NCBI GenBank assembly: GCA_020348445.1
Contig: CP070751.1
Location: forward strand, 3,031,185-3,056,273
Source: Thermoplasmata archaeon
GTDB taxonomy: Archaea; Thermoplasmatota; Thermoplasmata; GCA-020350865
DNA length: 25,089 bases
Direction of reading: 5' to 3'
The translations under genes and the position numbers were made by a program. Shown one piece after another: positions 5,862 through 15,757 of the stretch (its first letter is position 1; every line of letters starts with the position of its first letter). The notes under the pieces were generated by a model that was not told where the DNA came from, searched no databases, and saw nothing but the letters and a program-made list of their open reading frames with translations.

Positions 5862-5911
5862 AAGGAAGAAGACAAGTTTTGAGTTTTAACAGTGTTGTAA
5901 AAAGTGTCGGA

Positions 5912-6006
5912 TTTATGTGCAATTGAGATAATTTTCGTATAGGTCAATTGCCCGAAACATGTAAATTAACTACGATGATAATACCCAGAATTCGTTAATT
6001 TCCATA
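5912..6006. repeat. Double-hairpin insert, copy 1 (95 nt)
   Basis: gtgcaattg-N19-caattgccc followed by catgtaaattaac-TA-N19-TC-gttaatttccat. Same length as, and collinear with, 13250-13344. Confidence 0.85.
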
Positions 6007-6026
6007 TGAAGGATATAAGCCCCCTT
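6007..6026 (-). repeat. Copy of the rnpB 3' end (putative att core), 19/20 identical
   Basis: tgaaggatataagccccctt versus tgaaggacataagccccctt at 15394-15413. The distal rnpB tail (aagtgtcgga, cf. aagtgtcggg) resumes at ~5902-5911 beyond the 95-nt insert. Confidence 0.9.
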
Positions 6027-6075
6027 ATTTAATCAAGAAGGGACAAAAGATGTGGGAAATTTTCCTTCATTTTTT
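6027..6075. repeat. Conserved junction arm, homologous to 13365-13413
   Basis: atttaatcaagaagggacaaaagatgtgggaaattttccttcattttt versus atttcatcaagaagtggcaaaatatcggcgaaattttccttcattttt. A degenerate version (aaaatttgggtataaattttcc) follows the 12780 core. Confidence 0.8.
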
Positions 6076-6280
6076 CTTATTTTTGTACCTGGCTATGATT
6101 CTTGTAGATTATTTCATATCATTTTACAGATTCAGTGAAAATATAAATACTTCTTATGTACGGCAAATTAGCTGTCTCGGGCTCTTTTTCTTTCTTTTAT
6201 TTTTTGAATTTCTGGAAGATTCTTGTGGATTGTGTTGATATTTAGGTAGATAATAAAAGGGTCATTTTTTATTCTATTCT

Positions 6281-7621
6281 TCAAGGTATATATTCACAAC
6301 CACCAAATGAATTGATCTTCTCTTCTAACCGGGTCCAAAGATCCATTGCCTCCAAATCAGAAACAGTATACCATCTCTCGAATGTTTTGGCTACATCACT
6401 TTCTTCATGATTCCTACCGGCTGTCATGTCGGAACAATGCTTAGCCAATAGATAATCTGGTAACCATTCAAGGGCAAGTTCATAGACTCTTCTACCGACA
6501 TTTTTGGTTCTTTCATCATAAGGTACGGCGTCAGAAAACCAGGAATTGTATTTTGTTTGGTTAATTAACAACTCTTTTCCGGAATATTGGGGGGTACAAT
6601 GGACAAATGCATTATATGGATCATCCCCATGGCTTAGATACCTTTTAACAGAAACAAAATATGGTAAAGCATGCCCCACACCATTTGGGCGGTGATAAAC
6701 AACCGGGATATTAACAGCCCTTAAAATTGAAATCAAAAAGCCATTTGTTCCGTGACATCCAGCTGTTCTGTGTTGAATACCCCATTGTGGATATCCTCTG
6801 TACAGTGTTCCTTCTACGATCCGAGATATTGGTGGAAATCCTCGATACTGCCATTGATCCTCTACATTTTTAATGGTAAAACCATATAAAAAATGTACCA
6901 GATTTTCCCTGCACCAATCTAATAGATATCCAATTGTGCTTATATGATACTCTGCTAATATACCATTGTCAAGGATGAACGAAATAGTATATTCTGGTGG
7001 TGCAGGTATTGCCCTACCTGCTACATTAGATTCAATTAAATAACCACGAAGTCCAGTTTTGACTAAAGATCCGTCTTGGTAAAATGTATAATTATCATAT
7101 CGTTTAAAGAAATATCTACTATCAAAAAGACGACGAAGTAAAGTGTCGGGATATCTATTTATGGACCATTTCGGAGTGATATTTAATTTGGGTCGGATCA
7201 ATTCAAAAGCTAGGCAATGCCCTACATATGCAATGTAAAGTGACCAAGCATCATTAATGGATAACATGGTAAAAGGATAAGTGTCGTCATCTAAATATTC
7301 CGCAAGTATATTCACTGGAGGATCATGTAATTCTCGACCATTTGTTATCCAACCCCTTTGTATCAGTTCATATTTCATCCGCATTCGTAGACTATCGTAA
7401 CGTAGTGAATACAAAATCATGTCCGCAAGACCTTTAAAAAAATATTTTCTCAGATCTTTCTTCTGATATAGGCGCCATCTCATAAATGGAACTGATCTTC
7501 CCTTATAGTGCTGCCACCGTATGGATTTTGAGATTTTCGAAACATCTAACCATTTTTCCAAGTTCTCTATCTCTCTGTCGACCTTTTTTACAAATTCCAA
7601 CCAATATTCATATCTCGACAT
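6281..7621 (-). CDS. Hypothetical protein with a transglutaminase-like (Cys-His-Asp) motif
   Basis: 446-aa ORF with a GGAGGT RBS before the ATG. AGCHGTNGFLISILRAVNIPV...GHALPYF...HGDDPY fits the G-x-C...LRAxGIP...H...D transglutaminase-like pattern. Confidence 0.75.
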   Translation of the reverse strand: MSRYEYWLEFVKKVDREIENLEKWLDVSKISKSIRWQHYKGRSVPFMRWRLYQKKDLRKYFFKGLADMILYSLRYDSLRMRMKYELIQRGWITNGRELHDPPVNILAEYLDDDTYPFTMLSINDAWSLYIAYVGHCLAFELIRPKLNITPKWSINRYPDTLLRRLFDSRYFFKRYDNYTFYQDGSLVKTGLRGYLIESNVAGRAIPAPPEYTISFILDNGILAEYHISTIGYLLDWCRENLVHFLYGFTIKNVEDQWQYRGFPPISRIVEGTLYRGYPQWGIQHRTAGCHGTNGFLISILRAVNIPVVYHRPNGVGHALPYFVSVKRYLSHGDDPYNAFVHCTPQYSGKELLINQTKYNSWFSDAVPYDERTKNVGRRVYELALEWLPDYLLAKHCSDMTAGRNHEESDVAKTFERWYTVSDLEAMDLWTRLEEKINSFGGCEYIP

Positions 7622-13465: not shown

Positions 13466-15106
13466 TTAGGATAAATTATCAATAATCCATTGTGCCATAG
13501 CAATGAGCCCATCTGCCTCTTCATCTGTGAGTTTTTTCCCTCTGATTGCCTCTATTAAAAATATAAGTGCTTCAAGTTGGTTCACAGCAACGTTATCATT
13601 TCCGTTCTCAAGCGAATTGATTGCGGCTTCAAGGATAGATACCATACTATTTTCAATACCTACCGGTAAATCCATTACCTCAACTTCTTCAATTAAATCA
13701 ACTGGAAGTATGATCTCCCACCAGAGATAGGGATAGGTTACATCTTCTATGATTCTCCAAATGTTCTCGAAATCCCAATCGACGAAGGTGGCTTGTTGTT
13801 TCATTTCTGCGGTTGTTTTACCAATTCCGCCATCACTTGAAGATTGACCTGAGGTTTCTGTGTCCCAGTAGGAAGATAATATTAAGCCGGAGTTGTTACC
13901 AATAAATCCACCAACAGCCGAGCTTCCGCTGACGCTGCCGGTAGCATAGCAGTTCTCCAACGTGCCATAGGAGTTCCGACCCACGAGCCCACCGACACGA
14001 ACATTTCCGCTGATGCTGCCGGTAGCGTAGCAGTTCTTGACCGTGCCCCAGTAGACCCATTCCCCAGGGCCGTTCCATCCCACGAGCCCTCCGACATCAT
14101 AATTTCCGCTGACGCTGCCGGAAGCGTAGCAGTTCTCCACCCAGCCATCATAGTTAATTCCCACGAGCCCGCCGACATTATTATTTCCGCTGACGCTGCC
14201 GGTAGCGTAGCAATTCCATACTATAAACCATGTATCCGACCGGAGATCCCCCACAAGCCCGCCGACATTATTATTTCCGCTGATGCTGCCGGTAGCGTAG
14301 CAGTTCTTGACCGAGCCTTCAAAGTTATATCCTATGAGCCCGCCGACATCATCATTATTTCCGCTGACGCTGCCAGTAGCGTAGCAGTTCTCCACCGAGC
14401 CCCACATGTGAGTTCCCGCGAGCCCGCCGACAGCACCAGTTCCACTGACGTCGCCGGTAGCATAGCAGTTATTCAACGCGCCATTACCAGCAATCTCTCC
14501 CACGAGCCCACCAACAGCACAGCTTCCGCTGACACTGTCGGTAGCATAGCAGTTCTCCACCGAGCCAGAGTTAACTCCCACGAGCCCGCCGACAATACAA
14601 CTAATTCCGCTGACGCTGCCGGTAGCATAGCAGTTCTCCAACGTGCCATCCCAGTTAGCTCCCACGAGCCCGCCGACATAATTATTTCCGCTGCCCTCTA
14701 AATCCTCCAGACCAACGCCCGATATTATACAGGAGCGCGTGATACCAAAAAGACCAATATAATTTGTAGAAGGGCGATTTATGTATAGATTTGTTATTTT
14801 ATACCCTTTTCCATCAAAGGTACCTGTGAATGTTCCTATCGGCTCAAATCCTGCACCACTGTTCCATCCCGATGTGGCTGATGCATCGATGTCGTTTACG
14901 AGAATATAATGCGCTGTTAAATCATAGTGCATATTCTGGAGTTCATCCACATTCGAGATTTGATATGGATCTTCAGGAGTACCAGAACCACCAGCAAAAT
15001 ACTCGCTGTACTCTCCGACTGCGCTCACATTTGTAGGCACTGCTACCGCAAATACAGTAGCTACCATCATTAGGCATACAAATAGAATTGATATTCTCCT
15101 TCTCAT
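13466..15106 (-). CDS. Secreted GLUG-repeat protein with a C-terminal FIMAH-like helical domain
   Basis: The true start is probably the ATG at 15106 (GGAGGT RBS; signal peptide MRRRISILFVCLMMVATVFAVAVPTNVSA). There are ten VGG(L/F)(V/I/A)G repeats, seen as ~78-100-bp DNA repeats at ~13900-14700. The C-terminus LPVGIENSM...AVNQLEA...GKKLTDEEADGLIAMA resembles FIMAH. Confidence 0.9.
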   Translation of the reverse strand: MRRRISILFVCLMMVATVFAVAVPTNVSAVGEYSEYFAGGSGTPEDPYQISNVDELQNMHYDLTAHYILVNDIDASATSGWNSGAGFEPIGTFTGTFDGKGYKITNLYINRPSTNYIGLFGITRSCIISGVGLEDLEGSGNNYVGGLVGANWDGTLENCYATGSVSGISCIVGGLVGVNSGSVENCYATDSVSGSCAVGGLVGEIAGNGALNNCYATGDVSGTGAVGGLAGTHMWGSVENCYATGSVSGNNDDVGGLIGYNFEGSVKNCYATGSISGNNNVGGLVGDLRSDTWFIVWNCYATGSVSGNNNVGGLVGINYDGWVENCYASGSVSGNYDVGGLVGWNGPGEWVYWGTVKNCYATGSISGNVRVGGLVGRNSYGTLENCYATGSVSGSSAVGGFIGNNSGLILSSYWDTETSGQSSSDGGIGKTTAEMKQQATFVDWDFENIWRIIEDVTYPYLWWEIILPVDLIEEVEVMDLPVGIENSMVSILEAAINSLENGNDNVAVNQLEALIFLIEAIRGKKLTDEEADGLIAMAQWIIDNLS

Positions 15107-15130
15107 CTTCTTACCTCCCAACCATTAGCT

Positions 15131-15250
15131 TTCTGAGAACGCCCTTCCAAGCGTTTCCCTTCCAAAGCTTGAAAGTATTATGTTTTTGTGTCTAATAATG
15201 ATTTCGGATTTTCATTATTCTTATCGATTAAAAATCTGGATAAGTATGGG
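15131..15250 (-). promoter_or_regulatory. Shared leader/promoter module (element C), copy 2
   Basis: Direct repeat of 12495-12615, immediately upstream of the GLUG gene RBS. Confidence 0.65.
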
Positions 15251-15333
15251 CGCCCCCAACCCCAAGGAGGAAAAATTTATCGGGTCAGATAGCCGCGATT
15301 ATGCGAGGAAGGGTTAGTTGGGATCGGGGGGCG
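15251..15333. repeat. Element B, copy 4, just downstream of rnpB
   Basis: cgcccccaaccccaa...ttatcgggtcagatagccgcgattatgcgaggaagggttagttgggatcggggggcg. Confidence 0.92.
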
Positions 15334-15386
15334 AAATGTTCATCATATTTATAAGCTTTAAATCTTTCTATCATAGCAAGATCAAG

Positions 15387-15757
15387 TGTCGGGTGAAGGA
15401 CATAAGCCCCCTTCTGTTGATCGGACCCGAAAGCCCGACTGACAGCATTCGACTATGCGTCCTACCTACCGGTCTTGAGATATCATCCCGGTTCGTTTGG
15501 ACTTGCTCCGGTGGGGATGGCCGTTTCACCAAATCCCATTCCGACGTCCGGGGCAACCCCCATCATTCCATAAGGAAAGGGCTGTGTCGTTTCTGCTCCA
15601 TCTCGACGATATTTTCGCCAAGCCCGAATTGGCTTCGGGAAGCCAGGACTCTCGCCCTATCCGCTTGCACGGATCCACCTTCTCAAGGAGGGGGGACTTT
15701 CCTCAGTTTGAACCCCGAAAAACGGGGAAACCGTTGGCTGTCCGCCTTCTCCCGACA
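15387..15757 (-). ncRNA. rnpB: Ribonuclease P RNA (archaeal, ~370 nt)
   Basis: The minus strand has the conserved regions in order: GAGGAAAGUCC (CR-I), GCAGAAACG, GUGAAACGG...GGAGCAAG, GUCGAAUGCUG and ACAGAAGGGGGCUUA (CR-V). P4 pairs GUCCCCC with GGGGGC, and the terminal P1 pairs GUCGGG-A-GAAGG with CCUUC-A-CCCGAC. Confidence 0.95.

Follow-up and report, generated by a model that had tools for sequence, protein, structure and literature searches.

We analysed a 25,089-nt stretch of DNA from a Thermoplasmata archaeon (assembly GCA_020348445.1, here G000; contig CP070751.1, positions 3,031,185 to 3,056,273), referred to below as the window, in which the RNase P RNA gene (rnpB) is followed by a tandem array of small gene cassettes separated by copies of the 3' end of rnpB. 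Positions are those of the window unless they carry the prefix C1. The rnpB gene (15391–15753, minus strand) is the anchor of the array, on its putative attB side. It is intact and was the only RNA gene that Rfam found in the window, where the archaeal RNase P RNA model RF00373 (RNaseP_arch) matched it over its full length (184.8 bits, model positions 1–288). The repeated core is the 20-mer AAGGGGGCTTATGTCCTTCA, which comprises the CR-V/P4 strand and the 3' strand of P1 of rnpB. Three copies are exact, at 15394 (within rnpB), 13345, and 10604, and two have one mismatch each, at 12780 and 6007. All five are in direct orientation on the minus strand, four of them downstream of rnpB, and the core was matched in 0 of 100 shuffles (chance expectation, 0). 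A preliminary description of this DNA had claimed direct repeats of the rnpB 3' end, and both the gene and the repeats were thus confirmed. In every copy, the block of identity starts at one common base (AAGG..) and extends ~10 nt beyond the gene end into CCCGACACTT, giving ~30 nt in total. A shared left edge together with a ~10-nt run past the end of the gene is the pattern expected from an element that regenerates its target gene.

The same description had placed the repeats at 13345, 12780, 10604, 8343, and 6007, and all of these held except 8343, where only ~11 of the 20 core bases were present (..AAGA-----TATGCCCTTCA). This weak match is possibly a decayed junction (8227–8362, minus strand). 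It has no upstream arm, and the copy at 8343–8362 is credible only because a dispersed element, D2 (8227–8303; see below), comes after it at about the usual distance. Across the 5.16-Mb G000 assembly, the five copies above were the only ones at ≤2 mismatches, so the scattering of the core away from rnpB that had been named as a counter-argument was not seen. The core was found in 50 of 401 genomes of the class, with multiple copies mainly in the lineages of the G000 genus, G005 (same order), G027 (family f13), and G077/G299 (family f4). The G000 assembly is ~82% complete, and its "1-contig" record consists of 354 pieces separated by 353 spacers, each of exactly 100 N. The window coincides with one whole piece, bounded by the N runs at C1:3031085–3031184 and 3056274–3056373. 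Because G000 is so fragmented, absences from the whole genome are weak evidence.

The G000 cassettes were 0.57–4.6 kb in length and carried one to three cargo genes each, all co-oriented with rnpB on the minus strand, and the cargo agreed with that listed in the preliminary description. Cassette 1 encodes a 551-aa GLUG-repeat protein (13466–15121; Pfam Glug, 1.7e-53, eight stretches). Cassette 2, which is 565 nt as a whole, has a 59-aa open reading frame (ORF; 12987–13166). It has its downstream arm and its family 3 upstream arm (see below) in common with the first cassette of the same-genus genome G002, which has a 140-aa ORF, and nothing in common between the arms. The cargo of cassette 3 (10759–12402) consists of a 133-aa ORF (12001–12402), a 317-aa ComEC-like hydrolase of the metallo-beta-lactamase (MBL) fold (11046–11999), and a 39-aa CxxC ORF (10759–10878). 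The MBL protein matched Pfam Lactamase_B and defence-type MBL models of PADLOC and NCBIfam, all under the curated cut-offs. The 133-aa ORF and the ComEC-like MBL gene (11046–12402) form a conserved two-gene module in sediment archaea, with MBL homologues from metagenome-assembled genomes (MAGs) labelled Euryarchaeota, Asgard, and Bathyarchaeota. In other archaeal contigs (L094 5577–6954, L096 5616–6936, L097 740–2060), the pair was found at 55% and about 70% identity without a core or arm beside it, indicating that the pair is cargo and that the arms belong to the cassette, not to the gene module.

Cassette 4 (cargo 8361–10227) encodes a 479-aa S8 subtilase (8788–10227; Pfam Peptidase_S8, 2.2e-26) and a 117-aa ORF (8361–8714). 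The latter resembles the N-terminal prodomain of the subtilase (residues 35–162; 28% identity and E 1e-6 by pairwise BLASTP), with the terminal PPxFF among the shared residues, and judging from this resemblance it may be a free-standing propeptide-like partner. The last cargo gene, either that of cassette 5 or a distal gene of cassette 4, encodes a 446-aa protein (6281–7621) with no family match and weak transglutaminase-like leads. Neither the MBL nor the 446-aa gene was found in 20 relatives, and no gene was shared between the G000 cargo and the arrays of same-genus relatives.

On the minus strand, each junction consists of a 50–80-nt upstream arm, the ~30-nt core block, and a downstream arm. 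At Junction 0 (15384–15413), the core (15394–15413) lies within rnpB and is followed by CCCGACACTT, the two forming the ~30-nt identity block common to the junctions. The upstream arms fall into three families. Family 1 was found at Junction 1 (13345–13429; arm 13365–13429, core 13345–13364; nhmmer, 86 bits), where it is 88–96% identical to arms of G001 and G003, and again at Junction 5, the last one (6007–6101; arm 6027–6101, core 6007–6026; 90.8 bits). Family 2 was found at Junction 3 (10604–10699; arm 10624–10699, core 10604–10623; 85 bits), with 85–87% identity to G002 arms, and family 3 at Junction 2 (12780–12876; arm 12800–12876, core 12780–12799; 80.6 bits). The three families cross-match in nhmmer and are therefore distantly related. 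They are unlike rnpB and its flank, and they are conserved over four genomes beside unrelated cargo. The downstream arms form several families. A small ORF running through arm and core was considered and rejected on reading the sequences, since it was not conserved. Beyond 5900, where the preliminary description had suggested that the array might continue, no further core or arm was found.

Some downstream arms carry leader-like sequence. In cassette 1, the downstream arm and leader (15131–15393) contain a TATA-like AAAGCTTATAAATA motif, for which a promoter role is plausible, a D2 copy at 15254–15330, and a ~200-nt leader that is also present in cassette 3, whose downstream arm and leader (12495–12779) include D2 at 12618–12694. 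The downstream arm of cassette 4 (10371–10603) is similar to the rnpB flank and contains D2 at 10371–10447. By self-BLAST, the rnpB flank (15131–15413) recurs at 12495–12799 and partly at 10373–10623, with 86% identity between 15307–15413 and 10517–10623. The ~200-nt non-coding leader itself (15131–15330 vs 12495–12694) is 91.5% identical before unrelated cargo, namely the GLUG gene and the 133-aa ORF with MBL gene. The same leader was seen once more in G000, at C1:1595746–1595941 (84%). D2 is a 77-nt structured dispersed element with a closing stem of ~15 bp that contains G-U pairs. Besides the four copies in the array (15254–15330, 12618–12694, 10371–10447, 8227–8303), it has at least 11 further copies in G000, which makes at least 15. 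The minus strand gives the better fold, with z of −2.7 to −3.8 in two of three copies (−2.7 for 15254–15330). Leaders and D2 gave no match to Rfam at a permissive threshold. D2 sits after the TATA-like motif in downstream arms and may be a 5' leader or a small RNA.

A second kind of small repeat is a 95-nt insert with two hairpins. One copy (13250–13344, minus strand) lies exactly between the core TTCA of Junction 1 and the CCCGA.. start of the downstream arm, and downstream positions 96–140 align with the uninterrupted G002 rnpB flank. Another (5912–6006, minus strand) lies directly after the TTCA of Junction 5; after it comes TCCGACACTT.., presumably the original distal flank. Further copies were found at about C1:4055669–4055763 in G000 and in contigs L032 (after 248), L039 (after 974), L031 (after 645), and L074 (after 6821), and junctions of G002, G004, and a metagenome contig hold the insert at the same position. 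Across genomes, the inserts were present directly after TTCA in at least six junctions, without target duplication, whereas the junction of rnpB itself never had one. Similarity between copies is only 68–79%, and the inserts may be small non-autonomous relatives of the IS200/IS605 family.

Four genomes of the same genus (G001, G002, G003, G004) were compared with G000. The genes upstream of rnpB, encoding Tpt1/KptA, a CARDB protein, and a giant protein, were syntenic in G001, G004, and the metagenome contigs L074 and L075. The similarity ended exactly at the rnpB 3' end, and the continuation differed in every relative. Further cores were present in all four genomes (15 in G002, three each in G003 and G001, and two in G004). 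Cores on the same contig were 0.6–7.9 kb apart, with one to three genes in either orientation between them and differing cargo; small G002 cassettes measured 615–635 nt. The cargo orientation was opposite or mixed in G002 contigs C13, C83, and C128, and also in G027. G001 could not serve as a closed reference and was rejected as such: 100-N gaps are present in it as well, and its rnpB runs into one of them at the 3' end. Repeats of the rnpB type thus probably break assemblies.

Outside the genus, the same site was occupied in other ways. In G027, two cassettes with one gene each (1.6 and 1.4 kb) come after rnpB, bounded by repeats of the rnpB 3' end of 119 and 63–67 nt. Both encode an AAA_14-type ATPase, the first also with a DUF4143 domain and a match to the PADLOC candidate PDC-S01 (352 bits). 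The corresponding empty site was found in the same family, where the MAG contig L049 (~90% identical) joins rnpB directly to the flank that lies after the third G027 copy. G005 has one AAA_14/DUF4143 cassette bounded by a repeat of ~90 nt, and the single-gene units of G027 and G005 are all 1.4–1.6 kb. In the metagenome contig L080, a gene of the same AAA_14/DUF4143 family, matched by similarity only, lies directly behind rnpB. AAA_14-type ATPase genes directly behind rnpB were thus seen in four cases from three lineages (L028 956–2278 and 2570–3874; L085 475–1731; L080 3195–4451), three of them as single-gene cassettes with rnpB repeats. DUF4143 was confirmed in two of these genes, and L028 2570–3874 has AAA_14 only.

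Family f4 contained larger elements. G077 has an 11.3-kb element (L083 2307–13570; C1:35790–47070) flanked by rnpB repeats of 30 nt, which begin at the rnpB base where the repeats in the window begin too. It encodes an intact 384-aa tyrosine integrase (PF00589, 131 bits), an N6/N4 DNA methylase, a TIR-domain protein, and a Schlafen/AlbA_2 protein, a gene content that resembles a defence island. The element of G299 is 4.8 kb long and contains the remnant of an integrase with 48% identity to that of G077. Insertions at this site of the rnpB 3' end therefore occur in at least three Thermoplasmata families and comprise classic integrase elements as well as very small integrase-less units.

We consider it fairly probable that the array in the window arose by tandem accretion of small integrase-less elements at an attB site in rnpB. 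The ~30 nt formed by the CR-V/P4 strand, the 3' strand of P1, and ~10 nt beyond the gene would be the attachment site, and site-specific recombination would most likely be performed there by tyrosine integrases, a recombinase type that we infer for this genus. Each incoming element would bring its own copy of the segment, so that an intact rnpB would be rebuilt and the displaced copy would come to lie at the far end of the element. Successive integrations would then stack four to five such small elements (0.57–4.6 kb) in tandem, each composed of a downstream arm or leader, between one and three cargo genes that have expression signals of their own, a conserved upstream arm of 50–80 nt, and a core. 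Cassettes of this kind, resembling cis-mobilizable elements (CIMEs) and having no integrase, would need a recombinase supplied by another element. The arms may be binding sites for the recombinase or an accessory protein, the order of insertion is likewise inferred, and the crossover point is predicted to lie within GCTTATGTCCTTCA. The cassettes may be fixed in the G000 assembly.

Several features are those of integrated islands. A full-length rnpB is accompanied by direct repeats of its 3' end at the distal boundaries, and occupancy differs between related genomes, in L049 vs G027 and in the genus, where the content varies from the rnpB end onwards with the upstream synteny kept. The third feature, an integrase inside the element, is absent from the G000 cassettes and the genus arrays and present in G077 (intact) and G299 (remnant). 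The G000 cassettes would fit CIMEs in structure, with cores on both sides and no recombinase; two of the cores have a mismatch, and one junction is decayed. Neither remnants of autonomous functions in the cassettes nor an autonomous neighbour in the array was detected. The proposal in the preliminary description that rnpB serves as an attB-like platform for repeated cassette capture is thus supported as far as the hotspot is concerned, by the varying content of relatives, the empty site in f13, and the integrase element in f4; its trans-acting recombinase was not found.

The following results weigh against accretion by integrase-less elements. Consistent with the preliminary description, no tyrosine-recombinase-like sequence or remnant was found in the window, and the same was true of the G000 cassettes, the core-bearing loci of the genus, and the core-bearing metagenome contigs. 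In the whole of G000, the search for tyrosine integrases that had been proposed found only two decayed C-terminal fragments, neither at the array and both adjoining tRNA genes, a finding whose weight is low given the fragmented assembly. Within the genus, a strictly empty site was not seen, nor did any cassette recur in identical form, whether at a second position or in a second genome. None of the 13 core-bearing contigs (11 metagenome and 2 MAG contigs) was circular. For 16 units of arm and core, RNAalifold gave no structure in the arms and found 0 compensatory pairs, and no protein is known to bind the arms. The 0.57-kb cassette with its 59-aa ORF is far below the size of typical decayed islands, so that a decay route to integrase-less elements is hypothetical.

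For the integrase linkage search, PF00589, PF16795, and the G077 integrase were run against G000 and G001–G004. Fourteen integrase loci were then scanned for cores (≤7 errors), arms, and tRNAs, and none was linked to an rnpB-type site. The two G000 fragments (C1:1864225–1864380 and C1:2412539–2412649) have tRNA-like sequence adjoining, one is cut by an insertion sequence (IS), and one lies downstream of an rve-type transposase, which points to decayed tRNA-targeting elements. With 12 tyrosine recombinase queries (11 from the same genus and that of G077), no G000 homologue beyond a 47-aa fragment was found, which may reflect the incomplete assembly. Other recombinases in G000 were one serine recombinase (at 4021684 of the assembly) and five Y1 transposases (Y1_Tnp), none of which adjoins a junction. 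Among viral contigs, the exact 20-mer had 0 matches and an 18-mer had four, which resembled chance terminator hairpins and had no integrase or rnpB. Metagenome contigs gave 12 core matches, which added further arrays and flanks and no integrase. A recombinase acting in trans, as the preliminary description had imagined, was therefore found neither in G000, which is incomplete, nor at the integrase loci of the genus.

Integration at the 3' ends of tRNA and tmRNA genes is textbook knowledge. In elements of this kind, a tyrosine integrase splits off the 3' part of the RNA gene, the element's own copy restores the gene, and the displaced fragment marks the far end (Islander, PMC4383910). The G077 element is an ordinary example except that its target is rnpB. 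The closest match to the array in the literature is the set of tandem islands at ssrA, the tmRNA gene, of Dehalococcoides, which have 20-bp repeats of the ssrA 3' end and extra conserved sequence beside the repeat (PMC3146451). Fifteen of these islands have no integration module, for which the authors suggested that they are possible cis-mobilizable elements; the serine recombinase DsiB is present in about half, and the arrays reach up to about 100 kb downstream of ssrA (PMC3146451). Both systems have a single-copy essential structural RNA gene as target, tandem downstream islands, direct repeats of ~20 nt with extra conserved sequence beside them, strain-specific content, and many units without an integration module. 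They differ in the target and the domain of life (tmRNA in bacteria vs RNase P RNA in archaea), in the size of the units, which is 0.57–7.9 kb here, and in the recombinase, a serine enzyme there, and here none found in the genus and a tyrosine integrase in a related family.

CIMEs and site-specific accretion have been described for ICESt1/ICESt3, integrative and conjugative elements (ICEs) of Streptococcus thermophilus (reviewed in PMC5704250). As in CIMEs, putative attL and attR sites are kept without integrase or transfer genes, and units would be stacked in tandem at one att site by successive integrations; CIMEs, however, are recognisably decayed ICEs whose cis mobilisation was shown experimentally, whereas the cassettes here have no recombination or transfer remnant and are known from sequence alone (PMC5704250). 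In the literature searched, which was not exhaustive, no description of rnpB as an integration site in archaea was found, and Streptococcus papers that name rnpB use it for phylogeny only. In E. coli, rnpB is followed by short tandem non-coding repeats derived from its 3' end, without cargo genes. They are like the array in being derived from the 3' end and located downstream, and unlike it in having no cargo genes between them.

Instead of accretion, single cassettes could be inserted at the rnpB 3' end and removed again by a recombinase whose gene lies elsewhere (viral, plasmid-borne, or chromosomal), each cassette with an arm-core-arm site of ~100–150 nt, so that rnpB would be a platform for integron-like capture in this genus and at least two other families. 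We regard this as possible and would put it forward only tentatively. Under it, many of the small cassettes would carry defence-type cargo such as COG1373-type AAA_14/DUF4143 ATPases, MBL nucleases, subtilases, and giant surface proteins. The stricter form, in which the platform is a dedicated one, the cassettes are small by origin, the arm-core-arm unit is a specialised site, and a chromosomal or viral recombinase acting in trans keeps inserting and excising single cassettes at rnpB, seems to us rather unlikely. It would account for the very small cassettes (565 nt in G000, 615–635 nt in G002, 1.4–1.6 kb in G027 and G005), for the lack of an integrase remnant within any cassette, and for the 15 or more cores in G002. 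The conservation of 50–80-nt arms across species beside unrelated cargo recalls attC families, and gene modules that are armless elsewhere have gained arms here. Against it, the searches found no recombinase, the arms have no conserved hairpin or covariation, no cassette is common to two genomes, and the contigs checked included no circles. Cargo orientation is mixed in relatives, and several cassettes appear to have promoter-like leaders of their own, with no sign of platform-driven expression.

The comparison with integrons themselves, which the preliminary description had drawn, came down to small units and a repeated site. Integron attC sites are imperfect inverted repeats (R''/L''-L'/R') that fold as hairpins, and integron cassettes are co-oriented and expressed from a platform promoter (Pc). 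The array resembles integrons in its small, mostly single-gene units without a recombinase, its repeated site-like separators, and the occurrence of site families beside unrelated cargo. However, no IntI or attI is present by the array, where the rnpB neighbours are the genes for Tpt1/KptA and the CARDB protein. The shared block is a 30-nt RNA gene end and not a 7-nt GTTRRRY core, there is no attC-type imperfect hairpin (0 compensatory pairs), cargo orientation is not uniform in relatives, and the cassettes here would have TATA-like leaders of their own, as read from the sequence. Membership among the integrons was therefore rejected.

Local duplication and homologous recombination could have produced the repeats without any site-specific recombination in the genus, if the rnpB 3' flank were reused as a portable regulatory or terminator module. 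The ~200-nt leader that is 91.5% alike in two cassettes and also occurs at 1595746 of G000 fits this explanation, as do the dispersal of D2 in at least 15 copies and the arm-like sequences with decayed cores at four other places in G000. We nevertheless find it improbable. All copies, including those of the integrase-bearing elements in another family, have the identical sharp left edge within rnpB, and the boundaries of the empty-site pair are precise. In addition, the cargo right at the rnpB end differs in every relative, and the upstream arms show no relationship with rnpB or with its flank.

It is very improbable that the cassettes are moved in single-stranded form by a Y1 transposase of the IS200/IS605 type, with insertion 3' of ..TTCA. 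The five Y1_Tnp genes in the G000 assembly and the 95-nt inserts, which lie exactly after TTCA in at least six junctions and may move in this way, favour it, but the cassettes have no subterminal hairpin ends of that family, a target duplication of 20–30 nt (63–119 nt in the G027 repeats) is foreign to IS200/IS605 insertion, and the integrase-bearing elements at rnpB encode tyrosine recombinases. An IS200/IS605-type element was thus rejected for the cassettes, which duplicate 20–119 nt of target; only the 95-nt inserts have a double hairpin and no duplication. Weakest of all is an assembly artefact or a chimeric contig formed from repeats: the source is a fragmented MAG and repeats of 100–300 nt can mislead assemblers, but the copies have diverged (68–92% in the flanks), so that an assembler would not collapse or duplicate them, and comparable arrays were found in at least five independent assemblies, which makes this objection, anticipated in the preliminary description, scarcely credible.

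The locus stands out by its target (an archaeal rnpB), its tiny units, its recurrence in three families, and arms that stay conserved next to unrelated cargo. If the small units are mobile, archaea would have a cassette route for shuffling accessory and defence genes, integron-like in its working and built from other parts. The origin of cassettes would then be testable, since the module of the 133-aa ORF and the MBL gene exists with and without arms. The rnpB 3' end marks a hypervariable island and can be used for finding accessory genes in fragmented archaeal MAGs.

Away from the array, four arm-like sites with decayed cores were found in G000. A pair of these, located on the same piece, encloses a segment of 6.9 kb (C1:4055644–4062593) in the order right half-core and downstream arm, then upstream arm and left half-core. 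The 1976-aa cargo protein of this segment is 49% identical to a protein encoded between two cores in G002, and the left flank of the segment is conserved in relatives and the right flank is not. The segment may be an insertion into a core-like secondary site. In the window, the GLUG gene of cassette 1 (13466–15121) contains seven internal repeats of ~129 nt, and a giant convergent ORF at the left end (3–5861) shares GLUG repeats with the cassette 1 protein, with 46% identity over 168 aa.

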